Positions 4,112 to 44,906 of a stretch of DNA of 64,000 nt are shown piece after piece. The stretch's first letter is position 1; each line of letters begins with the position of its first letter. The DNA comes from Oscillospiraceae bacterium (GTDB lineage Bacteria > Bacillota > Clostridia > Oscillospirales > CAG-272), in contig SVQL01000001.1 in assembly GCA_015065365.1 (NCBI GenBank), positions 2,355-66,354 of the forward strand, given 5' to 3'. A program made the position numbers and the translations under genes. Below the pieces are notes generated by a model. It had not been told where the DNA came from and made no database searches. It saw only the letters and a program-made list of their open reading frames with translations.

Positions 4112-5879
4112 CTTTTCTTCTCCTTGAGGTTAAACCAACGACGCCTATTGCAGAAGCCATAACCATAGCCGCGCCGCACAGTCCGATAGAGCTGCCGCAG
4201 CCGCCCTTAGGCGCCTCGGTCTCGGGAGCGGGAGCAGCCTCGGTGTCCTTATTATCCTCTACCAATACGGGAGGCTTGTTTTGGGGCTTGGAGGATCCGC
4301 CGTCATCATTTTCGTTCTCGTTGCCGTCGTCCTCGGGAATGTCCATAGGAGGAGCCGCTTCATTTTCAGCAGCTATGAGAGCAACACCCTTGTATACGTT
4401 AAGGTCACTTACGGTTACTTCGGTCACGAAATACGAATAGAAGTAAATTCCAAGATAATCTCTAAAGAATACGGAAGGATCTTCAACAGGGCTGTACTGC
4501 TCGATAAGAAGCCATCTGCCCTCGGAGTCCTTTACGTACAAAGCGATCGTGGTATTATCGCCGTTGATCTCCATAGCGTACTCCTGAACGGAAGGATAGT
4601 TCTCCGTTCCGCCGTCGTATCCGGGAACGTAATCGCTAGTAAGCGTAGAGTAATCAACGTGAGAGTATCCGCTTACCGCGTTACCGTTTCTCTGCGGTCT
4701 TCCCTTGTTAGCATAGAAGTATCCGCCGTAGACACCGTCGATGAGCAATCCAAGCGGAACGTTGCTCGTACGGGTCATAGTAAACTTAACGGTGTAAGAA
4801 TATCCTGCGCCGAGAGGAAGTCCCTCGATGTCTGCGCCCCAAGCGGCGTTTTTCTTTTCGGTAACGCCTTCCTCGCCCGTAGGTCTTTCAGTAACCCTAA
4901 TGGTTACCTTGCCTGCGTCCTCGGAATCAACGTTTGCGGTGATATTATCGCAAGGCCACTCCCAACCTGCGTTTGCAGCAGCGGCTGCGTTGCTGGGCTT
5001 GAAGCAATCGTCAGCTCCGCTGAAGTCAGCAGAGTAAAGAAGTCCGCCCTCTTCAACTCCGTCCCACAAAGCCGTTGAGATTTCGGGTTCTTCGCCTTCA
5101 CCCTCGCCTTCACCCTCGCCACCTGCGGGAGGAGTAACGGCAGCATTTTCATTAGCTACAACCGATATGCCCTTGTATACGCATACGTCGCTAACGGTTG
5201 CTTCAGTTACGTAATACGAATAGAAATATAATCCAAGACGGTCTCTGAAAAATTCGGGCGGATCCTCCTTGGGAGTACCATCGTCTATCTTGCTCCATTT
5301 GCCGTCCTCGCCCTTTACGTACAAAGCAAACGTCGTATCGTCACCGTTTATCTCAATAACGTACTCCTGCTCTGTCTTTTCGGTATAATTAACCCAGCTA
5401 TGTCCTGTCAATGCGCTACCGTTTCTTTGAATTCGAGCCTTGTGTGCGTAGAAATAACCGCCGTGAGTGCCGTCAAACAGCAATCCGATAGGTTTTGCGT
5501 TATCTGCGCAGGAAACCTTGAACTTAATCGTATAGGAATATCCCTCGCCAAGAGGAAGATCGTCTACGTCCGCGCCCCAAGCAGTATTGTTCTGCGGTGT
5601 AACCTTAAAAGTCACTTTGCCGGAGTCCTCAGGATCAACCGTTGCGGTTATATTATCGCAAGCCCAGTTGTAGCCTGCGTTTGCGGCAGCAGTTTCGTTG
5701 CTGGGCTTGTAGCAGTCACCAGCGCCGCTAAAGTCAGCCTCGTAGAGAAGCGCTCCGTCCGCAGCAGCAGCGTAAATATCGTTCGTAGCCACGTCTGCAA
5801 ACGTCGCGATTGCCATGAAGGGTACGGTCATCATCAAGACCAATACCAATGCCAAAATTTTTTTCATTGTATTTTTCAT
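4104..5879 (-). CDS. Secreted protein with two lectin-like repeats and a C-terminal GGCG-helix-RRRKDD anchor/sorting signal
   Basis: Signal peptide MKNTMKKILALVLVLMMTVPFMAIATFA. Two ~230-aa internal repeats (LLYEADFSGAGDCYKPSN... and LLYSADFSGADDCFKPSN...), each ending VSDxxVYKG, joined by a (GE)n linker. The tail is KGGCGSSIGLCGAAMVMASAIGVVGLTSRRRKDD. Confidence 0.75.
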   Translation of the reverse strand: MKNTMKKILALVLVLMMTVPFMAIATFADVATNDIYAAAADGALLYEADFSGAGDCYKPSNETAAANAGYNWACDNITATVDPEDSGKVTFKVTPQNNTAWGADVDDLPLGEGYSYTIKFKVSCADNAKPIGLLFDGTHGGYFYAHKARIQRNGSALTGHSWVNYTEKTEQEYVIEINGDDTTFALYVKGEDGKWSKIDDGTPKEDPPEFFRDRLGLYFYSYYVTEATVSDVCVYKGISVVANENAAVTPPAGGEGEGEGEGEEPEISTALWDGVEEGGLLYSADFSGADDCFKPSNAAAAANAGWEWPCDNITANVDSEDAGKVTIRVTERPTGEEGVTEKKNAAWGADIEGLPLGAGYSYTVKFTMTRTSNVPLGLLIDGVYGGYFYANKGRPQRNGNAVSGYSHVDYSTLTSDYVPGYDGGTENYPSVQEYAMEINGDNTTIALYVKDSEGRWLLIEQYSPVEDPSVFFRDYLGIYFYSYFVTEVTVSDLNVYKGVALIAAENEAAPPMDIPEDDGNENENDDGGSSKPQNKPPVLVEDNKDTEAAPAPETEAPKGGCGSSIGLCGAAMVMASAIGVVGLTSRRRKDD

Positions 5880-5921: not shown

Positions 5922-6047
5922 TTAGAATGGGTCTTCCGCCCAGTTATCGAGAGTGTCGCTTCCGAATATGACAGAAAATACCATGATGTCCTTCGTGTCA
6001 AGATTTACGACGCTGAGCTCGGGAACGACGTATTTTTTATTTTTCAT
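5922..6047 (-). CDS. Conserved 41-aa micro-protein (MKNKKYVVPELSVVNLDTKDIMVFSVIFGSDTLDNWAEDPF), unknown function
   Basis: ATG at 6047 with AGGAGG 9 nt upstream; TAA at 5922-5924. The paralogue at 32321..32449 has 33/41 identical residues, and half of the codon differences are synonymous. Too short for the supplied ORF track. Confidence 0.6.
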   Translation of the reverse strand: MKNKKYVVPELSVVNLDTKDIMVFSVIFGSDTLDNWAEDPF

Positions 6048-6065: not shown

Positions 6066-9000
6066 TTAGTAAACGAATTTTGCATAAACGGGCAGATGGT
6101 CGGAGGGATATCTCATTACTCCGTCAACCTCATCCACCTTGTTGTTGATTACGGTATACTCGAGAGCCTCAGCGTTTCTGTATATGACGTGGTCGAAGAC
6201 ATACTTATTACGAACTGTGTAATCGGTTCCGTCAAGCGTACCGCCGGTGTCACCTGCAATGAGCGCCTCGTCTCTTGCGAAGGAGAGTCCGCTGTCGGAG
6301 TATCCGTTGAGAACGACCTTACCTTTAGCCGAGCTAACGTCTGCATTCATGTCACCGGTAAGTATCTGCGTAGGATACTGTGCTGCCTTTTCCGCAAGCC
6401 ATGCAGCGAGAAGTCTCGACTGATATTCACGCAAGAGATGGTCGTCATCACACTCCGAATCAGAGGAGCTGGTACCGTCACCGTAATGGAGGTGAGTATT
6501 TACGAAGAGTATTACCTCGCCGGTCGTCTTGTCTTTGAGAACTGCGTAGCTAAAGGTTCTTCCGATGTCCTCGTCAGAGAACCAGCCCTCGGCATCTCCC
6601 TGAACGTCGATAGACATATCTGTGCCCTCGTAGCCCTCAATGGTATAGTCGTCAGCAAGATTCTTGAAGGAATCCCAACCGGAGCTCACAAGAGTGAACT
6701 TCTCAGTCTTGTAGTATATATCGTTGAATGCCCAGCCGTTGCCGAACTTGTTAGTATATTTGTTGTACTGTCTGTTGCCGGCAAGATTTGCATAGCCATT
6801 GTTCTTGAGAACAGCGAGATAATCGTTCCAATCCTCGGTGTCCTCCTGGATTCCGACAACGTCGGGGTTAGCATCAAGGATCGTCTGAACTGCGTTTGCG
6901 GGGTTTCTTCCCTCCCAAACGTCGTCTCCCTTATACTCAAGGTTGTAGGACAATACGTTAATATAGGATTGCTTCTCTTCATTTTCTCCGTCTGCAGGAG
7001 TGAAGAAGCCTGTAAGTGTCTTCAATTCGTCTGCATCGTAGGGGCTGTAAACGGTAGTGCCTGCAATAACTACGGAGTTATTGTACTTCTCGTTGCTCTC
7101 AGTGCTAACATCGCCGTATGCAGCTCTTGCAACCTCGTCGATAGATCTGGAGTTGCTCTCCAAATCGAAATCAGCGTATTTATAGATCTCTCCGTTTACT
7201 TCAATAAATGCTCTTGCGGAGAACTCGCGGTTGTAGTTGCCCGCCTTAACGTTAACGAGCGCGCAGTTGATGGTATAGGAAGCAGGGTCTTCGTCTTCGT
7301 GAATAGTCGTTGCGTCTATCCTTACGTACTTAGCACCCGTAATAGCACCGCATGCGTCCAGAGCCGCCATTTCAAAGTCTACACCGTTATTAGTAAGATA
7401 GTCGGTAGGAGTAATGATCATACCGAGCTTAACATTATCCTCGCCGTAGGTCTCTCTCAAGGAGTCGATCACGGGCTTTGAGAATTCACTCTTGAAGCGG
7501 ATACCCGTAGGAACGCTAAGACGAACGGATGCGCCGGATACGTTCAATACCTTTCCAAACTTAAGTCCCTTGTATATCTTTACGTCGGAAACCTCAGTCC
7601 AAGAATCCGCGTCAGAAGTGCCGCTCAATTTTCTTGTATAAATTCTGCATTTCAATGTATCTTTAAGCGCTGAACCCTCATAGGTCATCGCTCTTACCTT
7701 GTTGAACGAACCGTCGGCATCCATGACGTAAAGAGTCAACGTATTGTACTCGGGATCAACCTCAACAGCAAACGTATGCTTCTCAGCCTTAGCCACGTCG
7801 GTACTGTAATTCCATTTGTCTTCGCCCTCATCCGACTTTTCTACCTTTTGAGTATTCCATTCCCACAGAGAGTTACAACCGAAGCCGTCAATAACAAGCG
7901 TCTGATTGCCATCCACCTGAATACCGAGTCCGTACTTGTTATATGCTGTGTTTCCGAACTCCAGATCAAACACGAGGGTGTAATTGTTGTTCTTGTATAC
8001 GGGAGCTGCGCCTGCTTCAACCTCATCGGGATTCAGAACCTCTCTGAGAGGATATCCGCTGTCAAGTCCGCCCCATATAGCGCGGTTATATGCCTTGCCA
8101 TCAATAAGGGTAATTCTTGCAGAGCTTCCGTCCTCGGAAATAACAGCTTCTGCGCCATTATTATTACTGTCGTAGAATCCCTGATGCCAATTAAAGCGAT
8201 CAGCGAAGTTGACGGTATGCAATAGATCGCCCTCGTTTGCGTTTGCGTACTCAGCAGCTCTGTCTTCCTTAACGGATATAGGCAAGCCCTTGTATATCTG
8301 CACGTTAGAAACATAAGTCCAAACGTCGCTGCCAGTCGTGTAGCTGCGCGTGTAAATTCTGCAACTCAATTCAGTGCCAAAGGACAATTCTTCGTATCTG
8401 GCAACCTCGTTAAACGTGCCGTCAAGGTCTACGATATAGAGGCTCATTACTCCGTTTTCAGGATCGACCTCAACCGCGAACTTCTGAGTTCCTTCCTTAG
8501 GACTCCACAAACCGTCGTAGTCCCACTGCTCGGTGGGATATTTTTCTGCGTCTGAACTACTGAGCTCGGTATTCCAATCCCACAGCTTAGTGTTTCCGTT
8601 TCCGTCAACGGTAATAGTGTAGCTTCCGTCCACCTGAATACCAACCAGCGTTTTACCTCCGGTCGTGCTTCCGAAATCCGCATCGAATATAACCGTATAT
8701 TTTCTGTAATTGCCGTATACGTCTATCGTTGCGCTGGGATCATCAGGATCCTCTGCCGTACCTACAACCTCCATAAGGGGATACGCACTCTTCAATCCGC
8801 CCCACATAGCGCGCTTCGAGCTTGAGCCCAATACGGCAAGTCTTGCGGAGCTTCCGTCCTTGGAAACGACTACGTCCGCGCCTCTGTTGGAGTCAGTTGC
8901 AAAATAACCGAGCCACTCAAGCGAGTTGAAATCGACGGTATTCAGAAGATCGCCAACCTCTGCGTTATCATACTCAGCAGCTCTGTCTACCGTTCCCGTT

Positions 9001-10433
9001 TCAATATCATTAACCAATCCCTTGTATATCAGTATATCCGAAATCTCATTCCAGGAAACGCCGCTTACTTTTCTAGCATAAACTCTGCAACTCAATTCAT
9101 CATTAAAAGATATGCCGCTATAGGTTTCTACCTCTACGTACGTGCCTTCGGCATTCTTAACGTAAAGAGTCATCGTTCCGGTAACGGTTCCGTCTTCAGG
9201 GTCAGTTCCGGTATCAGGGTCAATCTCAACGGCAAATGAATTCATCTCGTCATAACCGTTCGCTGCCTTATCTATCCAGTTGACCGTTCCCGTAGTGTTT
9301 TTGGTATTCCAACTGTACAAATAGGTAAGGCCATCGCTGGCGACAAGAACCGTTTTACTGTTATCCACCTGGATGCCTACTCCGGTTTTTCCGTCTTCGA
9401 ATCTCGCGTCAAAGGTGACCGTGTACGTTTCTCCGTTCGCGAGAGAAAAGCGTTCCGCAGATACAAGTCCGCCCCACATAGCACGACCATTTTTGGCACC
9501 AAAAACAGATTTAGACGTGTTATGTATCTCCTGCTTTAGCGATCTTCCGCTTGCGGAAACGTATACATAGGAATTCCAGTTGTTGTGGTCAGCATAATCG
9601 TCGCTCCAGGACGTATCGTTGAAGTTGATAGCCTTAAGCAGTTCTCCGTTCTCTGCCTCTGCGTACAGCTCAGAAGGAGTCATTTCAACAGCGTCGGGAG
9701 TAACGACCGTTCCGTTTACGGTAACCTCACCGATATCGATGCAGCCGTCCTTGCTGGGTGCGGTTACGGCGATAGCGAAATACTTTGCCGTGACACCCTG
9801 ACCTTCACCGTCACGAAGATCTATCTTATGACCAACTCTGAGGAAGCCGTCAACGGTCTTGGAAGCGTATGCGTCGTCACCCTCAGCGGGGAAGTTCGCG
9901 CCCGCGTTCGTTCCGTCTCCGCACATTTCGCTGAACTCCTTCAAAGCAGTCCAGGTCTCGCCGTCCGTGCTCACGAGGATTTCATATCCGTCGTTTATAC
10001 CCCAGCTTGAAGCAGGATTGCTCCATCTTGCAGCCTGATCGGCAGTATATCCGTTTCCGGCAATCCAAATAGTTACGTCGTCAAGCTCACTCGTGCCGTT
10101 AAGCTCGAATACGGCGTATCCGTAGTACAAGCACATTTCCGAATCTACGAAAAGACGCGTATTTGCAGCGGATATCGCATCCGACTCGTAGTACGGACGA
10201 GCGCTCCTTCCGTCGGCACTCTCATCGTAAGGGTCTCCGTCAATCATTCCCGCAACGGAGCCGTACGAAACGTGCAAATCCCAGTCGTCGTCGTATTTTG
10301 CAAACATCTTCACGTGCTTAATGCTCGCGGGAGTAATTTCAGCATCCTCCGCACTTGCGGGCAAAACTATGATTGGCATTGCCATCATCAAGACCAATAC
10401 CAAGCATAAAAGCTTCTTTGCAATCTTTTTCAT
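6066..10433 (-). CDS. Secreted 1455-aa multidomain protein: F5/8-type-C-like domain, 3 lectin-like repeats, beta-sandwich domain, C-terminal EEP phosphoesterase
   Basis: Start at MKKIAKKLLCLVLVLMMAMPIIVLPASA, with AGGAG 6 nt upstream (ORF-track start 10508 rejected). YEILVSTDGETWTAL is a discoidin-like motif. Three repeats each end xIYKGL. GASVRLSVPTGIRF marks the beta-sandwich domain. EEP motifs: VLSYNLE, VGIQED, VNTHLHYG, TGDMNAD, FDHVIY, PSDHLPV. Confidence 0.85.
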   Translation of the reverse strand: MKKIAKKLLCLVLVLMMAMPIIVLPASAEDAEITPASIKHVKMFAKYDDDWDLHVSYGSVAGMIDGDPYDESADGRSARPYYESDAISAANTRLFVDSEMCLYYGYAVFELNGTSELDDVTIWIAGNGYTADQAARWSNPASSWGINDGYEILVSTDGETWTALKEFSEMCGDGTNAGANFPAEGDDAYASKTVDGFLRVGHKIDLRDGEGQGVTAKYFAIAVTAPSKDGCIDIGEVTVNGTVVTPDAVEMTPSELYAEAENGELLKAINFNDTSWSDDYADHNNWNSYVYVSASGRSLKQEIHNTSKSVFGAKNGRAMWGGLVSAERFSLANGETYTVTFDARFEDGKTGVGIQVDNSKTVLVASDGLTYLYSWNTKNTTGTVNWIDKAANGYDEMNSFAVEIDPDTGTDPEDGTVTGTMTLYVKNAEGTYVEVETYSGISFNDELSCRVYARKVSGVSWNEISDILIYKGLVNDIETGTVDRAAEYDNAEVGDLLNTVDFNSLEWLGYFATDSNRGADVVVSKDGSSARLAVLGSSSKRAMWGGLKSAYPLMEVVGTAEDPDDPSATIDVYGNYRKYTVIFDADFGSTTGGKTLVGIQVDGSYTITVDGNGNTKLWDWNTELSSSDAEKYPTEQWDYDGLWSPKEGTQKFAVEVDPENGVMSLYIVDLDGTFNEVARYEELSFGTELSCRIYTRSYTTGSDVWTYVSNVQIYKGLPISVKEDRAAEYANANEGDLLHTVNFADRFNWHQGFYDSNNNGAEAVISEDGSSARITLIDGKAYNRAIWGGLDSGYPLREVLNPDEVEAGAAPVYKNNNYTLVFDLEFGNTAYNKYGLGIQVDGNQTLVIDGFGCNSLWEWNTQKVEKSDEGEDKWNYSTDVAKAEKHTFAVEVDPEYNTLTLYVMDADGSFNKVRAMTYEGSALKDTLKCRIYTRKLSGTSDADSWTEVSDVKIYKGLKFGKVLNVSGASVRLSVPTGIRFKSEFSKPVIDSLRETYGEDNVKLGMIITPTDYLTNNGVDFEMAALDACGAITGAKYVRIDATTIHEDEDPASYTINCALVNVKAGNYNREFSARAFIEVNGEIYKYADFDLESNSRSIDEVARAAYGDVSTESNEKYNNSVVIAGTTVYSPYDADELKTLTGFFTPADGENEEKQSYINVLSYNLEYKGDDVWEGRNPANAVQTILDANPDVVGIQEDTEDWNDYLAVLKNNGYANLAGNRQYNKYTNKFGNGWAFNDIYYKTEKFTLVSSGWDSFKNLADDYTIEGYEGTDMSIDVQGDAEGWFSDEDIGRTFSYAVLKDKTTGEVILFVNTHLHYGDGTSSSDSECDDDHLLREYQSRLLAAWLAEKAAQYPTQILTGDMNADVSSAKGKVVLNGYSDSGLSFARDEALIAGDTGGTLDGTDYTVRNKYVFDHVIYRNAEALEYTVINNKVDEVDGVMRYPSDHLPVYAKFVY

Positions 10434-24003: not shown

Positions 24004-24017
24004 AACTTCTCCTTATA

Positions 24018-25166: not shown

Positions 25167-25182
25167 TTTCTTACTCCTTTTA

Positions 25183-26238: not shown

Positions 26239-26254
26239 AAAACGCGTCTCCCCG

Positions 26255-27277: not shown

Positions 27278-27290
27278 TGTTTTTCTCCTC

Positions 27291-27944: not shown

Positions 27945-28020
27945 GTTACCTCCCATTACTTTTTCATTAGATTTTGTCAATATAGTATTCTTTTAATATT
28001 AAACCCATTTTCACACTATT

Positions 28021-29538: not shown

Positions 29539-30810
29539 TCAATATATATCGACTTTAGCGAGAACGGGTAGATGGTCTGAGGGATATTTGCCGTTTTTAA
29601 TATTATTTACGACGGTATAATATCTGGTGTATACTGTATCGGTTGTAACGAAAATATAATCGAAAACGTAGGGGTGTCTTTTAGTAAAATTGCCTTCTAT
29701 CAAGGTAGGTCCCGTATCTCCTTTGACCTTCGCAACCTTTGAGGTCATGCCAAAATTCGGATTATCCCCCATAAAGTCGAGAAGAGCACTGCCGCTCACG
29801 GTCGTAGTAGTATTAAAGTCACCGAGAACTATAACGGGAAGATCGTCCTTGTTAACCTTCTTGATAAGCGCCGCAAGCGCGTCTATCTGCTTAACTCTGA
29901 CTTCCTCAGTTGCCCGATAATCGAGGTGTGTATTGATGAAAAGGAATTGCTTTCCCGTTTTATTTTCTTCAAGAACGACGTAAGTCATGGTACGGTATTG
30001 GTTTGAGCCCTCGTATTTTGATTTCCTCTCGGGAGTATCGCTGAGGAAATAGTATCCCTTTCGCTTAACGGTAAATCTATCCTTTTTCCAATAGATATGG
30101 TTGCCCTCGTCAATGTCTCCCTTATAAAGGTCGTAGGTTTTGAGGTTTTCAATAAAGTATTTGCTATGCCCCGTACCGTCCTCCTGAGTTCCGAGAACGT
30201 CTACGTCATTCTCAAGAATAGTTGTAACCATTCTAAGTCTGCAATTTGACTCTCTGCCCTCTTTATTCATATCAAAGAGAATATTATAGGTCATCACGTT
30301 CAAGGAAGGACTGTTCAGATCTTGAATTTCATATCCCGATATTGAAATTTCCTTGCTTTCCTCGTCTCCCGTTGCTTTTGCAAGAAATGCGTCGATAACC
30401 TGACAAAGAGCGCTGTAATTCGCGCCCAACAAAACTATCTTTTTGCCGGTAACGCCGATCAAGCCGCTTTGATTTTGCGCGTACGCCGCCGCAATAGCCT
30501 CGTCGTCCCCATCAAGACCTATCAAAATCTCAGGGCGGTCTTCATTTGAGAGCTCCACCTCAAGGGTAGTGCCATAAAGCGCCTCCAGCTTTTTGTTCAA
30601 ATATACGAACGCCCTTCCTGATCCGGTAATGGCGCTGTTTGAGCATACGACCGTATAGTCCTTCAAGGCAACGCCGTTGATAATCAGCGGACCAGTCACC
30701 GTCGGCGCCTGAGTTTCGGTTTCCTCCGTATTGCCGTTGTTACAGCCAAGAACTGCGGGCAAAAGCATAATCAATGCCAACAAAAAGCTTAAAAATCTTA
30801 TTTTTCTCAT
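29539..30810 (-). CDS. EEP family lipoprotein (intact paralogue of 41..1350)
   Basis: Lipobox LLPAVLGC. ~170-aa N-terminal domain shared with 41..1350 (…LCQVIDAFLAKAT). EEP motifs VMTYNIL, LGTQED, INTHLDY, LGDFNT, FDYIFVT and PSDHLPVL. Confidence 0.85.
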   Translation of the reverse strand: MRKIRFLSFLLALIMLLPAVLGCNNGNTEETETQAPTVTGPLIINGVALKDYTVVCSNSAITGSGRAFVYLNKKLEALYGTTLEVELSNEDRPEILIGLDGDDEAIAAAYAQNQSGLIGVTGKKIVLLGANYSALCQVIDAFLAKATGDEESKEISISGYEIQDLNSPSLNVMTYNILFDMNKEGRESNCRLRMVTTILENDVDVLGTQEDGTGHSKYFIENLKTYDLYKGDIDEGNHIYWKKDRFTVKRKGYYFLSDTPERKSKYEGSNQYRTMTYVVLEENKTGKQFLFINTHLDYRATEEVRVKQIDALAALIKKVNKDDLPVIVLGDFNTTTTVSGSALLDFMGDNPNFGMTSKVAKVKGDTGPTLIEGNFTKRHPYVFDYIFVTTDTVYTRYYTVVNNIKNGKYPSDHLPVLAKVDIY

Positions 30811-31131: not shown

Positions 31132-32274
31132 TCAGTCTTCTTTTCTCTTGATTACGAGAGCCGCGCCGGAAGCGAGTGCTATCATAGCAACGCCTGCAAT
31201 TCCGATAGAGCCGCCGCATCCGCCTGCAGCTGCCTCAGTCTCGGGAGCAGGAGCAGCATCGGTGTTAGCCTCAGTATTTGCGTCGGTTTCGGGAGTCGTG
31301 TTGGTGTTGTTATTCTCGTTGTTATTCTCGTTGTTATTCTCGTTGTTCTCGCCGTTGTTCTCATTGCCGTTCTCCTCGCCGCCTTCTTCGCCGGCAGAGG
31401 GTACGTCTAATTCGGGAGCAGCAAGCTCGTGCTCGGTAACTGCAAGTCCCTTGTATACACTAACGTTGTGAACCTCCATAGTAAGGAACTGCTCGGGGGT
31501 AACGTTGTCGCGTCCGAAACGGATAACGTATTCCCAGTTATCGTAAGCCCAACCGTGGCTCTCCTTAATCATCTGTGCGTCAACAGGCTCATCTTCCATC
31601 GAGAAGATCAATTCCCATGCGCCGTCCTTAACGACGTAAACATTATAAACGGTAATGTTATATACGAATCCAGCAGTGGTTTCGGTATTCATAGCGCCTT
31701 CGGGATGCTCACCGGTACCCTCGTCCTTGATTTCGATAGCGTAGGTCTGGGTCAAAGCAGCGTCACCGGTAGGTCCGTCGTATTCAACCGTAAACTTGGT
31801 GCTATCGTATTTTCCGCCCGCGTTTACAACGTAGGACAGGGTGTTCTTACCGGGAGTAAAGAAGAAGCCGGTTCTCCAGTCGGGATAGTATCCTATCGCC
31901 TGATTTTCATCCTCAGCGCTGAGAGTGAATACGGTGGTATAAGCGCTCTGGTGCATAGTGAATCCACTACCGGGCAAACGTCCGCCGTAACCACTTGTGT
32001 GACCCTCGTTTTTGACATCAGTCTGGGGAATGTAGGTAAAGGACATTCCGTCCTCTGAGACCTCAACGTTAGCGCCTGCCCAAGTAGCCGTAACGCCGAA
32101 GTATTCCTTGTTGTTGAAGTCTACGTTAGCGATAAGCTCGCCGTCTTCAACTGCGCCGTAGTTTTCGGGGAGCGACACCTCGCTGTTCTCTGCGAATGCC
32201 GCGATTGCCATGAAGGGCACGGTCATAAGAGTAACCAATGCCAAAGCCAAAATTTTTTTCATTGTGTTTTTCAT
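31132..32274 (-). CDS. Secreted single-repeat lectin-like protein with N/E-rich linker and C-terminal GGCG-helix-KRKED signal
   Basis: Start at MKNTMKKILALALVTLMTVPFMAIAAFA (AGGAGG RBS; ORF-track start 32358 rejected). Repeat motifs YTTVFTLSAEDENQAIGYYPDWRTGFFF, QTYAIEIKDEG and VSVYKGLAV. The tail is AAGGCGGSIGIAGVAMIALASGAALVIKRKED. Confidence 0.8.
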   Translation of the reverse strand: MKNTMKKILALALVTLMTVPFMAIAAFAENSEVSLPENYGAVEDGELIANVDFNNKEYFGVTATWAGANVEVSEDGMSFTYIPQTDVKNEGHTSGYGGRLPGSGFTMHQSAYTTVFTLSAEDENQAIGYYPDWRTGFFFTPGKNTLSYVVNAGGKYDSTKFTVEYDGPTGDAALTQTYAIEIKDEGTGEHPEGAMNTETTAGFVYNITVYNVYVVKDGAWELIFSMEDEPVDAQMIKESHGWAYDNWEYVIRFGRDNVTPEQFLTMEVHNVSVYKGLAVTEHELAAPELDVPSAGEEGGEENGNENNGENNENNNENNNENNNTNTTPETDANTEANTDAAPAPETEAAAGGCGGSIGIAGVAMIALASGAALVIKRKED

Positions 32275-32320
32275 AAAAAACCTCCTTAAAATTTTATTGA
32301 AAAAAATTTGTTTACTGTTT

Positions 32321-32449
32321 TTAGAATGGGTCTTCCGCCCAGTTATCGAGACTGTCATTTCCGAATATTACGGAAAATATCATAATATCCTTCGTATCAA
32401 CAGTAACGACTCTCATTTCGGGAGAAACGTATTTTTTATTGCTTTTCAT
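32321..32449 (-). CDS. Conserved 42-aa micro-protein (MKSNKKYVSPEMRVVTVDTKDIMIFSVIFGNDSLDNWAEDPF), paralogue of 5922..6047
   Basis: ATG at 32449 with AGGAGG 9 nt upstream; TAA at 32321-32323. Same position between the EEP gene and the GGCG-tail gene as in locus A. Confidence 0.6.
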   Translation of the reverse strand: MKSNKKYVSPEMRVVTVDTKDIMIFSVIFGNDSLDNWAEDPF

Positions 32450-32463: not shown

Positions 32464-33300
32464 TTATCTGTAATAAATTAACTTTGCTATAACCGGAAGG
32501 TGGTCTGACGGATACGGTGTGTAATCAGCATCGTCGTACTCATTGTTTATTACCGAGTATTCAACAGCTTGCATATTTTCATCGGTGTAAAGGATATAAT
32601 CAAATATCCATTCTTCACGCTTTTCGTGCTCCGTTATAAGCGTACCGCCCATATCATGCTTGATAATTGCACTATCCTCAGACGTAAGTAGGCCGCTGTT
32701 ACCAGTAAGCTCAGCAATAGTCTGCTTTCCGGGAGTAGCATTCATATCTCCCATAACTATCTGATTGGAATAGTCAGCTGACATATTGTCAAGCCATCTG
32801 CGCAGAAGTCTCGTCTGATAGTCACGAAGAAGCTCATCATCGGGGTAATTAGAGCCTGTACCCTTTCCATAATGCAAATGAGTGTTTACGACGAGATACT
32901 GTACACCCTTATCATCTTCCAAAACCACGTATCGGAAGAATCTGCCTATTTCGTCAAAGACGGATATGTCAAAGTTACCCTTAGTATCCAAGGTTAAATC
33001 CGCGCCTTTAGCGTCTACGTCCTTATACTCCTTTGCAAGCTTTTTGTAGTACCCTATGCCGCTGGTGACAAGCGTAAATTTATCGCTCTTGTAGTAGATT
33101 GCAAGATTCTCATTTCCGTTTCCGCCGGACTTGTAGCAAGAATATCCTTTAAGCGCCGACAAATAACTGTCCCAATCACTGTCGTCCTCTTGCAATCCGA
33201 GCACATCGGGATTGAACGTCATAATAGTATCTACAACCTTGGAAGGATCTCTGCCCTCCCAACCGTTATCATCGTCCTTGCCCTCGATATTATAGGTCAT
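32464..33300 (-). CDS. EEP phosphoesterase domain ORF, probably the C-terminal part of a lectin-EEP fusion reached by a -1 shift from 33306..36830
   Basis: Motifs MTYNIE, LGLQED, VNTHLHYG, MGDMNAT, FDYILYT and PSDHLPVI. No RBS or signal peptide of its own. The frame is open upstream back to the T7 run and aligns with the A-locus giant (…FF…SLTAMTYNIEGKDDD vs …FF…YINVLSYNLEYKGDD). Confidence 0.75.
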   Translation of the reverse strand: MTYNIEGKDDDNGWEGRDPSKVVDTIMTFNPDVLGLQEDDSDWDSYLSALKGYSCYKSGGNGNENLAIYYKSDKFTLVTSGIGYYKKLAKEYKDVDAKGADLTLDTKGNFDISVFDEIGRFFRYVVLEDDKGVQYLVVNTHLHYGKGTGSNYPDDELLRDYQTRLLRRWLDNMSADYSNQIVMGDMNATPGKQTIAELTGNSGLLTSEDSAIIKHDMGGTLITEHEKREEWIFDYILYTDENMQAVEYSVINNEYDDADYTPYPSDHLPVIAKLIYYR

Positions 33301-33305: not shown

Positions 33306-36300
33306 TCAGGGAACAAGTGTATTCACCTGTTCCCTTTGTTGAAAAAAATTCAAAAGGTTATCTCTTTTTTCGTATGGGCTGTATTTCTTTCCGTCAACCG
33401 TTTCTACCTCATACTGATACGTCAAGCCATTCTTAACAGTTCCGCGGACGTCGCTCAAGTCGTTATATGCAGCCATAGCGATGTCGGCTACCGTTCTTGA
33501 ATTGTTCTCCGAATCGTAATCGGAATAAATATATTCCACGTTTTCCCCGTTCACAATCTTTACGTAAAGAATTGCCGAGAAGGCTCTCTCGTAGTTTTGA
33601 GATTTTATATTAGTAATAGCGCAATTTATCTTGTAATAATCGCCATCCTCCAAAACTGTCAGCGCGTCGATTTCAAGATACTTAACGCCTTCTCTGTCGG
33701 AAGCATCAAGTGCCGCCTTAGTAAACTCAACGTCGGTAAGATAATCGGTAGGAGTGATCAACATTCCCATAATAACGTTATCCTCGCCGTATTTTGCCTT
33801 AAAGGTGTCGATATAGCTCTTGTAGATAAGACCTGTAAAGCGAAGTCCCGTAGGCTCGTCTATACGAATAGACGCTCCGTTTATAAGGTCTACCACGGAA
33901 GGAAGATTTCCGCTTCCCTTATAGACCTTTAGATCGCTAACGGTTACGACACCGTCCTGATTTCCAACGTTAGAATTACGGTAGAAACGCAATGCAAGCT
34001 CGGGATCCGTCGTACTCCAGTTCAGTGCAGTCGCAGGATCATTAATCAATTCATCGGGGTTAAGTGCGCGCACCAATACCCACTTGTTGTCCTGCAATAC
34101 CCAAAGATTGTATATAGTACAGTCAAAATCACTCGTAGACGTGCCGTTATCAGATATCTGAATTGCATACGTCTGAGTAAGAGCCTTAGTTCCGCCGTAG
34201 GTTCCCTCTACACCGGCAACAACTGCGTTGTTTTTGCCTTCGTTCGTACTCTTGTTAAATCTGTATGCGTTCTGACCGGGAGTCAAAATAAAGCCTGAAT
34301 TCCAGTCGGGGTAAAATCCTATCTCTTGATTTGCATCCGAAGCCTCCAAGGTAAATACAACGGTATACGAGCTCTTGAGTATCGGATAACGGTTGACAGC
34401 CATATCCTTACCCCATGCGCCCGATTTGCCATCTTCTATTCTCATCTCGATCGTGTGCTTATTCAAGATGGTCTCGTTTATTCCAGCCCAGCTGTCACCG
34501 GTGTTCCATATACCGGGCGTACCGTTGAAGTCAGCATAATAGAGCAGCTCGCCGTCATTAGCATCGGAATAAGACTTGGGCATGGGCACGCTTATCTTTC
34601 CGGCAGTAACTCCAAGTCCCTTATAAACGTCCAAATTACTGAGAGTTACGTACTTGCCCTCTTGTGATTTATCCAAGCCGTTACGGTAGAATCTAAGCAC
34701 GTATTCGTAATTATCTGCCGTATCGGTGTTCCACTTCAAATTTTCTTCAATCGCAGCAGCTGCCGCTTCGTTTCCGGGAGAGCTGAACTTAAATATAAGA
34801 ACCCACTTACCGTCAATCGCCACGTAAAGATTATACTCGGTAATATCGTATTCGAAGTTGGCTACATTGCCGTCGTTCTCGTTTCCGCTATCCATGATCT
34901 CAATAGCGTAGGTTTGCTTCAAGGCCTTCGTTCCGTTGTAGCTTCCCTTTATCTCGCTTCCGTTTTTATCAACGAGAGTTTCACCCAATTTACCAACACC
35001 GTATCTAAAGCTGTCAGCACCCGGCTTCAAAATAAATCCGGTGTTCCAATCGGGATAAAATCCTATCTCCTGATCCGCATTTTCAGCCTCTACCGTAAAT
35101 ATCGCGGTATAGGAGCTTTGAAGCATTCTATAAGTAGGATAATGCAGCTCAGCGCCCCAAGCAGCGCCCTCCGTAACGATTGCACCGTTCGCATCATAGG
35201 TAGTGGGCACCAAATTAATAGAGCGGTCCGTCACATTATAACGGTTCTCATTCATTCCCGCCCAAGCCTTTTGGGGAGTCCACAATCCACCGTTATCGTT
35301 TGTGAAGCTTGCGTTTATAATACACTCAACATCCTGACCGTAGGAACCGAACGCGCTAACAAATCCTTCACTTACCGAAAGTCCGGTATAAACGCTCAAA
35401 TCGCTAACGGTCATACCCAAATTTTGAGTTGTATCCTGTCCGTTACGGAACAAACGAAGCACGAATTCGTAATTGCTTGAATTCCACGTCAAAGCATTTT
35501 TGATAGCAGCTGCGTGCTCGGAATCCTTAAGGCTGAACAGCTTAACCCATTCGCCATCCTGAGCCACCCAAAGGTTATATTCGGTGATATTGTACTTAAA
35601 ATTCTCTTTTGCTCCGCCGTTTTCATCGCCTTCATCCTTGACTTCGATCGCGTAAGTCTGCTTCAATGCCTGCGTTCCGGCATATCTTCCCGAAAAGATA
35701 GTACTTCCGGTCGATCCACCGGCGTATTTACCGTATCTGTAGCTATCCTGACCGGGCTTCAAAATAAATCCGGTGTTCCAATCGGGGAATAGACCGAGCT
35801 CTTGATTTGCGTCTTCAGCCTCCAAGGTAAATACTACCGTATAAGCACTCTGGAGCATACGGTAATCGGGATACGGTAAGTCATCGCCCCAAACTGCGCC
35901 CTGTGTAACAAGATCACCGTTTGAATCATACATGGTAGGTATCAACATAACCGAGCTTCCGTCAGAGGAAGGACGCTTTGTCTTCATACCCGCCCAACTT
36001 TCTCCCGGGCTCCAAAAATCTCCTGTGCCCTTAAAATTTGCAGTATAGATAAGCTCACCGGTAGGGGGAGCCACCTTTCTGTTCGTAACAGCAAGACCAC
36101 TGTAAACGTTACAGTTGCTGACTATCAGCGACTTTTTTACTTGAGACTCGTCAGTTCCGTTACGCCAGAAGCGAAGCACGTATTCATAGTCACCGCTTGA
36201 CCAATTCAACGCAGAGTCAGGGTTGCAAGTCAATTCACTGCCTGAAAGCGAATACAAGAGCGTCCACTTGCCGTCAAGAATTACCCAAAGCTTATAAGCG

Positions 36301-36830
36301 GTAATCTTATAGTTTCCTCTGCCGGTTCCGCTGTCCTCAACCTCAATAGCATAGGTCTGCTTCAAGGATTTCGTTCCGTCATACGTTCCTTCTATACCCG
36401 CGTAGGTAGTACCTGCTCTATCTCTGCCGAACCTGAAGCTATCCTGACCGGGCTTTACGATAAAGCCTGTTTTCCAATCAAGGAATAGACCTACCTCCTG
36501 GTTCGCATCTTCAGCTTCCACGGTAAACACTGTGGTATAAGCGCTTTTAGACATCTCATATTTTGAAGTATCCAGTGCGCCGCCCCAAACGGATCCTTCT
36601 TCTCTTTTGAAAGTAAACTTCAAATCTATGGAGCGTCCGTCTTCGGAAATCTGGGGATCTATGCCTCCCCAACCACCTATGGGAGCATCGGAATTCCACG
36701 CTCCGCCGCCGTTAAAGTTGATCTCATCAATCAAATCTCCGACTTCCGCACTCGCGGGCAAAATTATCATCGGCATTGCCATCATCAAGACTAGCGCAAA
36801 GCATAAAAGCTTTTTTGCAATCTTTTTCAT
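33306..36830 (-). CDS. Secreted protein with four ~220-aa lectin-like repeats plus beta-sandwich domain (zero-frame product 1174 aa)
   Basis: Signal peptide MKKIAKKLLCFALVLMMAMPMIILPASA. Four repeats carry AxWG, YTxVFTxEAEDANQExGxxPDWNTGFIxKPG, QTYAIE and xVY[KST]G. GASIRIDEPTGLRF marks the domain also found in 6066..10433. Confidence 0.85.
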   Translation of the reverse strand: MKKIAKKLLCFALVLMMAMPMIILPASAEVGDLIDEINFNGGGAWNSDAPIGGWGGIDPQISEDGRSIDLKFTFKREEGSVWGGALDTSKYEMSKSAYTTVFTVEAEDANQEVGLFLDWKTGFIVKPGQDSFRFGRDRAGTTYAGIEGTYDGTKSLKQTYAIEVEDSGTGRGNYKITAYKLWVILDGKWTLLYSLSGSELTCNPDSALNWSSGDYEYVLRFWRNGTDESQVKKSLIVSNCNVYSGLAVTNRKVAPPTGELIYTANFKGTGDFWSPGESWAGMKTKRPSSDGSSVMLIPTMYDSNGDLVTQGAVWGDDLPYPDYRMLQSAYTVVFTLEAEDANQELGLFPDWNTGFILKPGQDSYRYGKYAGGSTGSTIFSGRYAGTQALKQTYAIEVKDEGDENGGAKENFKYNITEYNLWVAQDGEWVKLFSLKDSEHAAAIKNALTWNSSNYEFVLRLFRNGQDTTQNLGMTVSDLSVYTGLSVSEGFVSAFGSYGQDVECIINASFTNDNGGLWTPQKAWAGMNENRYNVTDRSINLVPTTYDANGAIVTEGAAWGAELHYPTYRMLQSSYTAIFTVEAENADQEIGFYPDWNTGFILKPGADSFRYGVGKLGETLVDKNGSEIKGSYNGTKALKQTYAIEIMDSGNENDGNVANFEYDITEYNLYVAIDGKWVLIFKFSSPGNEAAAAAIEENLKWNTDTADNYEYVLRFYRNGLDKSQEGKYVTLSNLDVYKGLGVTAGKISVPMPKSYSDANDGELLYYADFNGTPGIWNTGDSWAGINETILNKHTIEMRIEDGKSGAWGKDMAVNRYPILKSSYTVVFTLEASDANQEIGFYPDWNSGFILTPGQNAYRFNKSTNEGKNNAVVAGVEGTYGGTKALTQTYAIQISDNGTSTSDFDCTIYNLWVLQDNKWVLVRALNPDELINDPATALNWSTTDPELALRFYRNSNVGNQDGVVTVSDLKVYKGSGNLPSVVDLINGASIRIDEPTGLRFTGLIYKSYIDTFKAKYGEDNVIMGMLITPTDYLTDVEFTKAALDASDREGVKYLEIDALTVLEDGDYYKINCAITNIKSQNYERAFSAILYVKIVNGENVEYIYSDYDSENNSRTVADIAMAAYNDLSDVRGTVKNGLTYQYEVETVDGKKYSPYEKRDNLLNFFQQREQVNTLVP
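33309..33348 (-). promoter_or_regulatory. Candidate -1 recoding cassette: slippery U UUU UUU, 7-nt spacer, 11-bp hairpin
   Basis: mRNA sense: AAU UUU UUU CAACAAA GGGAACAGGUG AAUA CACUUGUUCCC UGA. T7 run = 33342-33348 (A7 on the + strand). Hairpin = 33309-33334. The zero-frame stop is at 33306-33308. Confidence 0.45.
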
Positions 36831-36866: not shown

Positions 36867-38342
36867 TTAACCTAAATTGTTTATTACTTTGAGTTCCTTG
36901 TTAATAGTGTTTCTGTTCATAACAAGGTAGATTTGCATGTTCTGATTTCTCTCCATTATCATTTTACGAGGAATCGTATATGCAGTAGTATCGAATACGA
37001 TGCCTATGTCAGTCGTTCTCGAATCGTATATCAAGTCAACGAGCTTGGTATCTCCCTCGTCGTCAAGATATCTGAGCTTCAATACGCTTTCATAATAGAA
37101 AGGTACGAGCGTTTGCTTACCAAGACTTGCCATTACCTCGAACGCCGCCCCCGTCTGATCGTACTTCGCAGTATTCGTGTTGGGGATTGCGTACAGAATA
37201 GCAATGTTGTGGACGTAAGAATAATATTCCTTCTGATCCACGTCGTACTTAGGATAAGGCAACGGAGCAAAGCCGTCGGTCATGTCAGTAAAGTTTCTCG
37301 CGGTATAGAAGTAACCGATGGAGAACAGCATCTCGCCGTCAGCAAACTTCTGCACGAGTATGGAAGAGTGCTTACTGTTATAAAGCTGAGTGTCTCCCGC
37401 ATTGTTTCCGTATTCCCCTGCGCCCTCAATGTGCATAAGGTTATACAGGCGTCCCATAACATCTATTGAACGCTCGTCGCCAATGGCAAGAACTGCCTTA
37501 CCCTCGTTATCTCGCTGGATAATAGTTCCGCCTGCTCCCACATACCAGCCAACTGTATTAGCGTCGGTGCAAAGGAAGCCGAACTGGTCTTCAATATCTA
37601 CCGCCTGGCTATTGTTCAAATCCTTCCACATATTCTTTGAAAGCGTTGCCGCTTCATCGATAGTCCACTTGCCCTCAAGAACCATCGTTCTGAGGTTTAC
37701 GTACGCATCGTCGCCGTAGTTTTCTGCAAGAAGCTTCTTATTTACGAATATGGAGCCCGTGTTGCTTACCATATCTATACCAACGTCACCCGCCATTACG
37801 TAGTTATGTCCGTTTAGTTTAGCGGCGTTCATGTAATCCTGCGCCCACCAGTCGCCCGTAAAGTCAAGGTACTTGGAGTCGTCAAGGCTCTTAAACCAGC
37901 CTTCAAGAACGAGAGCCATTCCGTTCCACTGAACGAGCTGATATGCGTCAAACTCCGTGGACTCCGCCTGAAGAAGAGGACGGATATCCGTTGCCGCATT
38001 ACTCGATTCCGAGCCGGTGTCGATAAAGTTTATCTGAAGATTGAGATAATCCTCTGCCTTTACGTTTCTCTTATAAAGCTCGAGAGAAATAAAATCTCCG
38101 TCCTCCATAGAGCCGTTCATGTCGTAGAAGTATTCAGCAGCATTCGACGCGGTCGTAGTCTGCCAAACGTTAATTTCTTCTCCCTCGAATTTGACGCCCT
38201 TAACCTTGTCACTCAGCAAAAGACCGTCGTCCGCTTCGGTAGTAACCGCAGCCTCGGTCTCATTCACAGAGCCACCGACGCAAGATACGATAAGCGGGCA
38301 CAACATCAAGATTGCCAATAAAAGCACCATTATTTTTTTCAT
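36867..38342 (-). CDS. Extracellular solute-binding lipoprotein (sugar-type), orphan; first gene of the locus-B operon
   Basis: Lipobox LCPLIVSC. ~490-aa family-1 SBP-like sequence. No cognate permease or ATPase genes nearby. Confidence 0.55.
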   Translation of the reverse strand: MKKIMVLLLAILMLCPLIVSCVGGSVNETEAAVTTEADDGLLLSDKVKGVKFEGEEINVWQTTTASNAAEYFYDMNGSMEDGDFISLELYKRNVKAEDYLNLQINFIDTGSESSNAATDIRPLLQAESTEFDAYQLVQWNGMALVLEGWFKSLDDSKYLDFTGDWWAQDYMNAAKLNGHNYVMAGDVGIDMVSNTGSIFVNKKLLAENYGDDAYVNLRTMVLEGKWTIDEAATLSKNMWKDLNNSQAVDIEDQFGFLCTDANTVGWYVGAGGTIIQRDNEGKAVLAIGDERSIDVMGRLYNLMHIEGAGEYGNNAGDTQLYNSKHSSILVQKFADGEMLFSIGYFYTARNFTDMTDGFAPLPYPKYDVDQKEYYSYVHNIAILYAIPNTNTAKYDQTGAAFEVMASLGKQTLVPFYYESVLKLRYLDDEGDTKLVDLIYDSRTTDIGIVFDTTAYTIPRKMIMERNQNMQIYLVMNRNTINKELKVINNLG

Positions 38343-44682: not shown

Positions 44683-44906
44683 ATCTTCTCCTTTAAGCTT
44701 TAAGATTTTTACTGAATTATAGCACACTCATACCGCTTTTTCAATACTTTTGAAAGAAAAAGTTACTTTTTTTAATATGCGTTATTCACAGATATATTTT
44801 ATTCTTAAACTAATTCTTCAAAGCGAATTTATATTAAAACCCGTACATACGGAATATCGTCTCCACCATCAAGAAAATTGAAAACTTCAAACGGTTCAGC
44901 CGCTTG

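Follow-up and report, generated by a model that had tools for sequence, protein, structure and literature searches.

What is the unit of about 220 amino acids (aa) that recurs through a 64-kb window of an Oscillospiraceae bacterium (contig SVQL01000001.1; the window is the whole stretch of 64,000 nucleotides that was analysed), and what does it do beside the catalytic EEP domains that accompany it? The unit is present in exactly ten copies, distributed over four proteins encoded on the minus strand and designated here pA (four copies), pB (three), pC (two) and pD (one). The explanation that best joins the observations, which we hold with moderate confidence, is that the unit is an uncurated concanavalin A (ConA)-like domain acting as a non-catalytic glycan-binding module, that it would hold an EEP enzyme on a decorated, probably phosphorylated, glycan, and that in pA the EEP domain would be attached by a -1 shift of the reading frame.

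The ten copies fall into three subtypes: B-type (pA and pD), A-type (pB) and C-type (pC). When pA repeat 2 was used as a BLASTP query against the four proteins, the other three pA copies were matched at 41-53% identity (E 1e-52 to 4e-78) and the pD copy at 41% identity (E 4e-49); matches to the pC copies were weak (E 6e-7 and 2e-5) and those to the pB copies marginal (E 0.013-0.039). Given such scores between subtypes, the A-, B- and C-types are clearly separate, and a common origin needed a stronger test. Subtype alignments were built from homologues in a database of 5.8 billion clusters, from which the domain instances were cut out (9 for B-type, 39 for A-type, 24 for C-type). Profile-profile comparison with hhalign gave E-values of 1.2e-18 for B versus A, 1.6e-22 for B versus C and 2.9e-23 for A versus C, in each case with a probability above 99% and over essentially the whole domain. 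The ten copies are homologous over their full length and form one family.

Three subtype hidden Markov models (HMMs), run with filters off against all 211 window open reading frames (ORFs) of at least 80 aa, found the ten copies, all of them in pA-pD, and no other significant ORF. This confirms the number of copies and of proteins given in the first-pass annotation of this DNA, and the spans which that annotation had assigned to the pA array (33915-36743) and the pB array (about 7563-9674) lie within a few codons of the domain boundaries listed in Table 1. Its sequence landmarks (G[ED]L[LI]xxx[DN]F, xWG, YTxxF, GxxxD, Qx[YF]AxE, LYV and a terminal VS[DN]xxxYKG) are seen in the alignments, with single-copy exceptions: pA copy 3 begins VECIINASF, and pD carries YGG in place of WGG. 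Copies inside one protein had also been described as strongly diverged, which is borne out by identities of 33-55%; some copies have closer relatives at the same position in other proteins. Repeat 2 of the family protein P0006, for example, shares 70% identity with pB repeat 3, and pB repeat 1 is nearest to the first repeats of other proteins.

Searches of known families gave no match to the repeats in the four window proteins, either in Pfam (E≤1) or in NCBIfam, and a lenient Pfam scan (E≤5) of 29 single copies, the ten window copies included, returned only scattered noise, among which we count CBM_4_9 in 2 of the 29 copies at E 0.043. The statement in the first-pass annotation that the domain belonged to no recognised family is in keeping with this, as the window repeats lie below every Pfam and NCBIfam threshold. 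Lectin_legB was not matched by the window proteins or by the 29 copies, and neither a profile of the 29 copies nor the relative P0012 found anything significant among PDB sequences; by the scan of the 29 copies and the profile search, the repeats belong to no described carbohydrate-binding module (CBM) family. GH131_N (PF18271) was the only recurring Pfam signal. It appeared inside the repeats of the relatives P0012 and P0037 (whole-protein E 1.6e-5 and 4.6e-4; E 0.01 for a single repeat), reaching 25.2 bits in P0012 against a cut-off of 23.1 bits only by the summing of sub-threshold stretches. Its gathering score was reached by none of the four window proteins (E≤1) and none of the ten window copies (E≤5).

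A word-indexed search of the 5.8 billion clusters returned 4 (B-type), 19 (A-type) and 12 (C-type) matches, all unnamed, from ENA, Logan or NCBI. When 1.84 billion representative proteins were searched exhaustively with an HMM, 241 passed at E≤1e-3, 151 at E≤1e-10 and 66 at E≤1e-30. No member is named in any source, and the fusion partners are EEP, metallo-beta-lactamase fold (MBL) and GDSL domains. Family members with traceable provenance are all unnamed sequences from gut metagenomes or metagenome-assembled genomes (MAGs). Relatives found in reference genomes with the B-type alignment were Eubacteriales/Clostridia MAGs, one of them 86% identical to the query repeat and another from roe-deer colon, and the exact pA protein occurs on 18 contigs from JGI and ENA samples produced with differing assemblers. 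Taken as sequences, these matches indicate a genuine but small, narrowly distributed and uncurated family which, where provenance can be traced, stems from uncultured gut Clostridia.

The fold of the repeat was predicted with AlphaFold for one B-type copy (pA repeat 2, alignment of 9 sequences) and one A-type copy (pB repeat 3, alignment of 25 sequences). Both models are all-beta jelly rolls, with a predicted local distance difference test score (pLDDT) of 83.5 and a predicted template modelling score (pTM) of 0.87 for the B-type model, and 90.6 and 0.89, respectively, for the A-type model. Foldseek searches of the PDB matched 103 chains with the B-type model and 314 with the A-type model at E≤1e-3; those listed at the top were for the most part proteins of the ConA-like fold. 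The top matches of the B-type model were GH131, the botulinum neurotoxin heavy-chain domain (BoNT Hc), Pseudomonas-exotoxin-like toxins, the Emp47 lectin, and GH43/GH32 enzymes, which carry a lectin-like C-terminal beta-sandwich; its best template modelling (TM) scores were 0.42-0.45. The A-type model matched legume lectins (the alpha-amylase inhibitor 1DHK_B, 3UK9, PHA-L 1FAT and soybean agglutinin 1SBD) with TM up to 0.60 and E down to 2e-8, and GH131 with TM 0.47-0.49. The GH131 structures among the matches were 4LE3 and 3W9A. Both models fall within the concanavalin-A-like lectin/glucanase fold, and as modelled the repeat is a ConA-like beta-jelly roll at superfamily level; no closer assignment is justified. 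The earlier suggestion of a beta-sandwich, ConA/LamG-like, agrees with the two models and the Foldseek matches at this level. The legume lectins resemble the repeats in size, in their two-sheet sandwich and in the proposed role of non-catalytic recognition, and they are the best matches of the A-type model; at about 10% identity and with no Lectin_legB match, the similarity is structural only, and they are single-domain oligomeric plant proteins, in contrast to the tandem modules found here on bacterial enzymes.

Conservation was counted over 276 near-full copies from 171 retrieved proteins, of which 78 have one full copy, 58 two, 19 three and 6 four. The copies nearly always follow either the signal peptide itself or an N-terminal region of about 250 aa. 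Conserved positions are occupied mostly by aromatic, hydrophobic or glycine residues: Y74-T75 (96-97%), G227 (95%), F10 (94%), W58 (92% aromatic), Y165 (87%) and, in addition, K226 (81%); G90 is conserved as well. The top acidic residues are D94 (79%) and E140 (65%); none is invariant, and E140 is replaced by V, T or A in many copies. As in CBMs, the repeat is a discrete fold appended to or beside carbohydrate-active catalytic modules (fusions to EEP, MBL and GDSL; neighbours of the GH39, GH92, GH36 and GDSL families). Because the copies are arranged in tandem and diverged, lack an invariant acid and are appended to catalytic domains, non-catalytic recognition is favoured, and the best reading is that the repeat acts as a lectin- or CBM-like glycan-binding module. 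From the architecture, the fold and the absence of an invariant acidic residue, it is plausible that the repeats target the enzymes to their substrate and that the copies have diversified specificities. The similarity to CBMs and to the surface glycan-binding proteins of Gram-positive bacteria extends to the presence of one to four copies on hydrolases or, with no enzyme attached, on a membrane anchor, and to loci that also encode glycoside hydrolases, esterases, AraC regulators and sugar catabolism. The differences are that the usual partner here is an EEP-fold phosphatase/phosphodiesterase and not a glycoside hydrolase, that no described CBM family is matched, and that binding is predicted.

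Catalytic repeats would be distant bacterial GH131-like (or GH16/PL7-like) tandem glycanases or lyases, with EEP, GDSL and MBL as accessory de-decorating enzymes. A catalytic role stays under consideration because the only sequence link to a known family, GH131_N in P0012 and P0037, is to a catalytic one, and GH131 is among the top Foldseek matches of both models. GH131 proteins (PaGluc131A, 4LE3/4LE4; CcGH131A, 3W9A) are, like the repeats, beta-jelly rolls of about 230-250 aa. They are fungal or oomycete beta-glucanases that depend on a single Glu, strictly conserved in the groove (PMC12149522); the repeats, which are bacterial (Clostridia MAGs and metagenomes), often have a Glu in the Q-x-[YF]-A-x-E strand. 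Unlike GH131, however, the 276 copies hold no invariant acid, and their tandem arrays stand ahead of other catalytic domains. In carbohydrate-active enzymes, tandem copies before a catalytic domain are usual for binding modules and not for catalytic domains, so that up to four diverged copies N-terminal to a separate catalytic domain have the layout of binding modules. The window copies, moreover, give no GH131_N match even at E≤5, and the TM to GH131 is only 0.42-0.49. We regard catalytic repeats as quite unlikely.

Alternatively, the repeats could serve chiefly as a stalk or as a scaffold for adhesion or protein binding, which would carry the EEP enzyme out past the cell wall or bind surface proteins of the host or of other microbes, with no specific glycan recognition. 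Such a role would suit a copy number that ranges from 1 to 4, conservation that is focused on core residues, the long low-complexity linkers of the anchored proteins pC and pD, and the presence of protein binders among the Foldseek matches (the alpha-amylase inhibitor 1dhk_B; BoNT Hc with SV2). Spacer domains, however, are usually small Ig/FN3-like units that are near-identical in sequence; the copies here are 33-55% identical and have same-position relatives across proteins, suggesting that each copy has its own job, and the genomic context is one of glycan catabolism with AraC regulators. The stalk or scaffold is therefore considered unlikely, and glycan binding by the repeats is the role carried forward below.

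The most frequent partner of the repeats is the EEP domain. Among 50 longer family proteins, Pfam identified Exo_endo_phos in 24, the metallo-beta-lactamase fold in 2 and a GDSL esterase in 1; with local HMMs, EEP was found in the same chain in 25 of the 171 family proteins, and an EEP gene or domain adjoins the repeat gene in most fetched loci with enough flank. These counts support the proposal of the first-pass annotation that the domain is what the parts of the system have in common and that EEP is its partner. In the window, seven EEP genes or domains are present. A single-sequence PDB search with the 278-aa EEP ORF downstream of pA gave no match, and only a profile of eight EEP domains found relatives. 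The best solved relative was BT3783 (3MPR/4C1R; E 3e-17, positions 4-264, nearly full length), followed by CCR4/nocturnin, sphingomyelinase C (1e-8) and ExoIII (9e-6), so that by this profile the window EEPs are closer to BT3783 than to nucleases or sphingomyelinases. BT3783 is an EEP-fold mannosyl-6-phosphatase encoded beside GH92 mannosidases in the yeast-mannan polysaccharide utilisation locus of B. thetaiotaomicron (PMC4978465). BT3783 and BT2630 share with the present system the EEP fold, the setting in a glycan-utilisation locus and a GH92 neighbour, GH92 lying beside EEP/repeat genes in the independent locus L013; BT3783 differs in being a stand-alone protein of about 300 aa without lectin-like repeats, in contrast to the window EEPs, which are fused or frameshift-linked to repeats and a linker module and come from Clostridia.

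The lower matches of the EEP profile bear on a further possibility, namely that the ligand of the repeats is a membrane head-group or glycolipid, such as a plant or fungal sphingolipid of the inositol-phosphoceramide type, and that the EEPs act as phosphodiesterases resembling phospholipase C or sphingomyelinase. Bacterial sphingomyelinase C and beta-hemolysin are matched at E 1e-8 to 8e-5, BoNT Hc structures, some of them ganglioside complexes, are among the fold matches, and a glucuronate/mannonate-type sugar-acid pathway and GH92 are found in the neighbourhood. BT3783 is, however, a far better EEP match than the sphingomyelinases, and family searches of the window revealed neither ceramidases nor lipases nor enzymes of inositol catabolism. 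We consider this possibility very improbable and retain a glycan as the predicted ligand.

The neighbourhood of the repeat genes in the window includes GH39, a pectate-lyase-fold protein, GH36, a GDSL esterase and two AraC regulators. Between the two repeat clusters lies a block of sugar-acid catabolic genes of the 2-keto-3-deoxygluconate/2-keto-3-deoxy-6-phosphogluconate (KDG/KDPG) type (17248-27980, minus strand), which encodes KDPG aldolase, a PfkB kinase, an enolase-superfamily dehydratase, a PHP-like protein, an FGGY kinase, a fucose-isomerase-like protein, glycerate kinase, a TIM-like protein and a SIS-domain protein. The aldolase/PfkB/dehydratase/YgjV/UPF0047 set is found again in L013 (100-5919), with GH92, GDSL and EEP-repeat genes, and GH39 is encoded upstream of the repeat gene in another locus (L015). 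The sugar-acid block may hint at the monosaccharide that is released. A gene order is shared between loci: a protein composed of signal peptide, repeats and module, with the EEP fused or in the next ORF; an ORF of 42-50 aa; an anchored protein with one or two repeats; and a gene of about 485 aa, which encodes a lipoprotein in the window. The locus looks like a Gram-positive glycan-utilisation system.

In the mechanism that we propose, one to four repeats, following a Sec signal, would attach at the cell surface to a decorated glycan, probably a phosphorylated one, and thereby hold the phosphatase/phosphodiesterase on its substrate, and the membrane-anchored copies of pC and pD would hold the glycan on the cell. 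In the other architecture, the repeats are followed by the linker module of about 190 aa and then by a hydrolase, usually EEP and occasionally of the MBL fold or GDSL. The first step of the locus would be the stripping of phosphate/phosphodiester or ester decorations from the glycan. Phosphorylated mannan is our best guess for this glycan, and only a guess. Literature searches found no description of EEP with polysaccharide utilisation loci or phosphodiesters, or of mannan phosphatases in Firmicutes.

An arrangement overlooked in the first-pass annotation is that pA and the EEP ORF downstream of it form a split counterpart of the pB architecture, joined by a conserved cassette. In pB, the repeats, the module and the EEP are in a single frame; in pA, a stop codon follows the module, and 5 nt further on the EEP ORF of 278 aa begins in the -1 frame. 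This ORF has no signal peptide and no Shine-Dalgarno (SD) sequence, the latter being present in 24 of 30 window genes. On the minus strand, the junction from 33350 to 33298 reads AAT TTT TTT CAA CAA A - GGGAACAGGTG AATA CACTTGTTCCC - TGA CAGCG ATG, so that a run of seven T residues is followed by a hairpin (Table 1), which dominates the fold of the surrounding 71 nt (minimum free energy -21.4 kcal/mol, z -5.4). A -1 slip would read ...NLLNFF-STKGTGEYTCSLTAMTYNIEGK... directly into the EEP, and the predicted trans-frame peptide across the junction is ...NLLNFFSTKGTGEYTCSLTAMTYNIEGK... / ...DNLLNFFSTKGTGEYTCSLTAMTYNIEGK. Seventeen family proteins contain the module and no EEP, and 16 of them end at most 8 codons past the same Phe-Phe.

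The junction was compared over 11 split loci, namely the window and ten fetched loci (L001, L003, L004 and L015-L021), which encode A-, B- and C-type repeat proteins. All 11 have a T6-7 run, a fixed spacer of 7 nt and a GGGAAC...GTTCCC hairpin, with the ATG 8 nt past the hairpin in most. Ten of the 11 have the heptamer U_UUU_UUU or U_UUU_UUC in the correct 0-frame register, and ten have the EEP ORF in the -1 frame. L004 (8408-8414; protein P0103) has a T7 run with the EEP in the +1 frame, and its ORF continues across the hairpin; a sibling, P0072, has one T more and the usual -1 geometry, and the difference may be either a homopolymer error in the MAG or natural phase variation. The 63-nt junctions align across the split loci nearly without gaps. 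Pairing is seen in 95.8% of helix cells and falls to 44-61% if the partner is slid; compensatory changes occur at two pairs, and no more than 1 of 500 shuffles reached the observed values. The hairpin arms are 88-97% identical, against 46-48% for the flanking coding sequence. Neither run nor hairpin is present in the four fused genes (pB, L006, L012 and L013), and the Phe-Phe of pB is encoded by TTC TTC. In fused and lipoprotein paralogues the EEP domain begins with an SL-x-V-M-[TS]-Y-N strand, which is matched by the peptide encoded in the -1 frame upstream of the ATG (CSL[TK][AV]M-TYN), and in L019 ATT stands in place of the EEP ATG.

A -1 programmed frameshift signal consists of a slippery heptamer, a short spacer, quoted as 5-6 nt for prokaryotes, and a downstream stem-loop (PMC8915115). 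The junction has the heptamer, a stable structure at a distance within about 5-9 nt, and a -1 ORF that is open from the slip site and has no initiation signals of its own, except that L016 and L017 have an upstream in-frame ATG. The cassette is therefore a candidate for -1 programmed frameshifting, or possibly for transcriptional slippage. Most ribosomes would make the binding-only pA, and a fraction would shift to the -1 frame, yielding a binding-plus-EEP protein like pB; independent translation of the EEP is less likely. Cellular -1 frameshifting in E. coli dnaX has the same 0-frame slippery heptamer, short spacer and downstream stem-loop, elements that are known here from sequence alone, and in Sulfolobus solfataricus fucA1 two ORFs of a carbohydrate-active enzyme are likewise joined by a -1 shift (PMC1616953). 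Unlike in dnaX and fucA1, the 0-frame product here would already be a complete secreted binding protein, which would gain a catalytic domain through the shift; the heptamer reads U_UUU_UUU/C, with a spacer of 7 nt. Literature searches found no description of a frameshift in EEP genes, and Rfam, run on the whole window, gave no matching family. To our knowledge, few programmed frameshifts are known in non-mobile bacterial genes, and we know of no case in which an exported carbohydrate-active protein receives a catalytic domain in this way; literature searches were likewise empty on this point. Motif scans of metagenome contigs for the hairpin or cassette gave zero matches, although the window sequence fits both patterns, and are read as uninformative. 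An assembly error as the origin of the pA/EEP split was discarded, as the identical protein is found on 18 contigs from differing samples and assemblers and the split recurs in diverged lineages.

The split could also exist without programmed frameshifting, the T-run being a mutational hot spot at which a fused gene was broken time and again (decay or phase variation) or a site of RNA-polymerase slippage, or the EEP being made by termination and reinitiation. T-runs are known sites of transcriptional slippage, the homopolymer varies in length between close relatives (L004/P0103 and P0072), and in L016 and L017 the stop codon overlaps a start in the -1 frame (TAATG/TGATG), so that an in-frame ATG lies on the stop codon. 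Against this, 10 of 11 diverged split loci hold the exact X_XXY_YYZ register with the fixed spacer and the same hairpin, whose arms are conserved far above their flanks and whose pairing exceeds that of the slid controls and includes the two compensatory pairs. The four fused genes lack both elements, the -1 frame encodes the opening EEP strand before the ATG, this ATG has no SD and is ATT in L019, and a cytoplasmic EEP would be separated from the secreted repeats. We therefore judge these origins of the split to be on the unlikely side, though the least so of the alternatives weighed here. That -1 programmed frameshifting (U_UUU_UUY, 7-nt spacer, GGGAAC...GUUCCC) yields both binding-only and EEP-bearing secreted proteins and that the repeat is, at the same time, a new lectin/CBM family for a phosphorylated glycan is given an even chance.

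Several observations weigh against the explanation as a whole. The structural similarity of the repeats is at superfamily level only (TM 0.42-0.60 and 6-15% identity over all Foldseek matches), and the sole family link at the level of sequence, GH131_N, is to a catalytic family; since GH131 uses one Glu, the absence of a carboxylate pair in the repeats is not decisive. The guess of a phosphomannan ligand derives from the similarity to BT3783 and one GH92 neighbour. At the junction, L004 requires a +1/-2 shift and not a -1 shift, the stop-overlapping ATG of L016 and L017 would permit coupled re-initiation, and the 7-nt spacer is one nt longer than the range quoted for prokaryotes.

Table 1 Positions of the repeat-bearing genes, their domains and associated elements in the window
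Feature	Coordinates	Strand	Description
pA	33306..36830	-	1174 aa: signal peptide, four B-type repeats, ~196-aa linker module; ends 13 codons past T-run
pA repeat 1	36075..36749	-	aa 28-252
pA repeat 2	35361..36071	-	aa 254-490; modelled with AlphaFold
pA repeat 3	34596..35342	-	aa 497-745
pA repeat 4	33900..34565	-	aa 756-977
pA C-terminal ~196-aa module	33309..33896	-	44% identical to pB aa 987-1185
T7 run	33342..33348	-	register aaT TTT TTT of pA frame; candidate X_XXY_YYZ heptamer, codons N-F-F
Hairpin GGGAACAGGUG-AAUA-CACUUGUUCCC	33309..33334	-	7 nt after T-run; conserved in 11 split loci
EEP ORF	32464..33300	-	278 aa; -1 frame relative to pA; frame open upstream to 33357
Small conserved ORF, copy 1	32321..32449	-	42 aa, MKxNKKYvxPE...DNWxxDxF; between EEP ORF and pD
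pD	31132..32274	-	380 aa from SD-preceded start: signal peptide, one B-type repeat, N/E/T-rich linker, C-terminal anchor
pD repeat	31429..32154	-	B-type
Lipoprotein with C-terminal EEP domain	29539..30810	-	downstream of pD
pB	6066..10433	-	1455 aa: signal peptide, ~230-aa N-terminal region, three A-type repeats, linker module, EEP in frame
pB repeat 1	9009..9659	-	ORF aa 284-500
pB repeat 2	8274..8966	-	ORF aa 515-745
pB repeat 3	7554..8243	-	ORF aa 756-985; modelled with AlphaFold
pB linker module	6954..7550	-	between repeats and EEP
pB EEP domain	6096..6953	-	fused in frame
Small conserved ORF, copy 2	5922..6047	-	41 aa; between pB and pC
pC	4104..5879	-	591 aa: signal peptide, two C-type repeats, acidic linker, C-terminal anchor
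pC repeat 1	5151..5768	-	C-type
pC repeat 2	4368..5060	-	C-type
Lipoprotein	2663..4111	-	482 aa; downstream of pC; paralogue of 36867-38342
Lipoprotein	36867..38342	-	491 aa; paralogue of 2663-4111

As read from the sequence, each of the four repeat proteins opens with a typical Sec signal peptide (MKK...LVLMM...ASA). The longest ORFs of pB and pD extend over 6066-10508 and 31132-32358, respectively; the starts at 10433 and 32274 chosen in the first-pass annotation are preferable, as an SD sequence precedes each, and are most likely the true ones. The N-terminal region of pB gives a weak F5/8-type-C signal. The window is chromosomal DNA of a sporulating Firmicute and carries YqfD, PhoH, Era, RecO and MutS2.

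The C-termini of pC (4107-4202) and pD (31135-31236), both on the minus strand, consist of an acidic or N-rich low-complexity linker, then the conserved motif G-C-[GA]-[GS]-S-[IF]-G, and after it a hydrophobic helix that leads into a basic-acidic tail. In pC, the motif is GGCGSSIG and a transmembrane segment precedes the tail RRRKDD; in pD, the motif is GGCGGSIG and the tail, again following a transmembrane segment, is KRKED. The same ending is found in the homologues P0002-P0004. It has no NCBIfam match and looks like a dedicated C-terminal sorting signal. The linker module (GAS[IV]R..PTG[IL]RF...ITPTDYL...KYSPY...FF), which joins the repeats to EEP in fused relatives, was found with a local HMM in 39 of the 171 family proteins and has no Pfam family.

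Both copies of the small ORF follow the pattern MKxNKKYVxPE[LM]sVV..DTKDIMxFSVIFG.D.LDNWAEDPF, and each has a strong SD. The ORF lies between a repeat-EEP gene and an anchored repeat protein, in an equivalent position in six other loci, and no family match was found for it. In L012, genes of the ScmC and PqqD families come after it, which hints that its product may be a modified peptide.

The lipoproteins at 2663-4111 and 36867-38342 share 25% identity (E 3e-37). Neither was assigned to a family, that at 2663-4111 being only faintly GanS-like (an ABC solute-binding protein), and a PDB search with the 491-aa lipoprotein was empty. No ABC permease genes lie near the position of the gene of about 485 aa. 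In L015, L016 and L018, a gene of about 480-490 aa with no family on record occupies the equivalent position in the operon, the likeness being one of size and position alone.

Two further EEP genes of the window are interrupted. The lipoprotein at 10532-12219 (minus strand), with two internal repeats of about 120 aa, enters the first EEP strand (VRIATWNIGHFS) and then meets a stop; the next ORF, with an ATGA stop/start overlap, encodes the rest of the EEP (Pfam positions 23-225). As read from the ORFs, this is a split or frameshifted EEP gene of another type than the pA/EEP split. The lipoprotein at 286-1350 (minus strand), an EEP paralogue of that at 29539-30810, matches positions 1-115 of 225 of the EEP profile and continues in an unrelated tail (…RYSTLISSLRERNARGCPLFSSVTLTRCPRVKP); it is probably a frameshifted pseudogene.

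Two cytoplasmic paralogues of about 500 aa (22504-24003 and 43210-44727, minus strand) are 52% identical, and one lies inside the sugar-acid catabolic operon. No relative was found for them in Pfam, NCBIfam or the PDB, and a resemblance to ceramidases was discarded, as these searches gave it no support. Genes of similar size without a family on record are present in L013, likened to the two by size alone.

The repeat is a new, narrowly distributed family that forms an uncurated branch of a well-known superfamily, that of the ConA-like lectins/glucanases. Its catalytic partner, an EEP sugar phosphatase/phosphodiesterase and not a glycosidase, is an unusual one for glycan degradation. Most of the locus lacks a family assignment, including the repeats, the linker module, the lipoproteins, the small ORF and the two enzymes of about 500 aa. 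If the repeats bind defined glycans, they might constitute a new CBM family and be of use as glycan probes. If the frameshift is true, recoding would dose a catalytic domain onto a secreted binding scaffold and so set the ratio of binding to catalytic protein at the surface, and gene callers would systematically misannotate such loci as a 'hypothetical protein' followed by a leaderless EEP. The locus suggests a dark pathway through which uncultured gut Clostridia would attack a decorated, probably phosphorylated, glycan.

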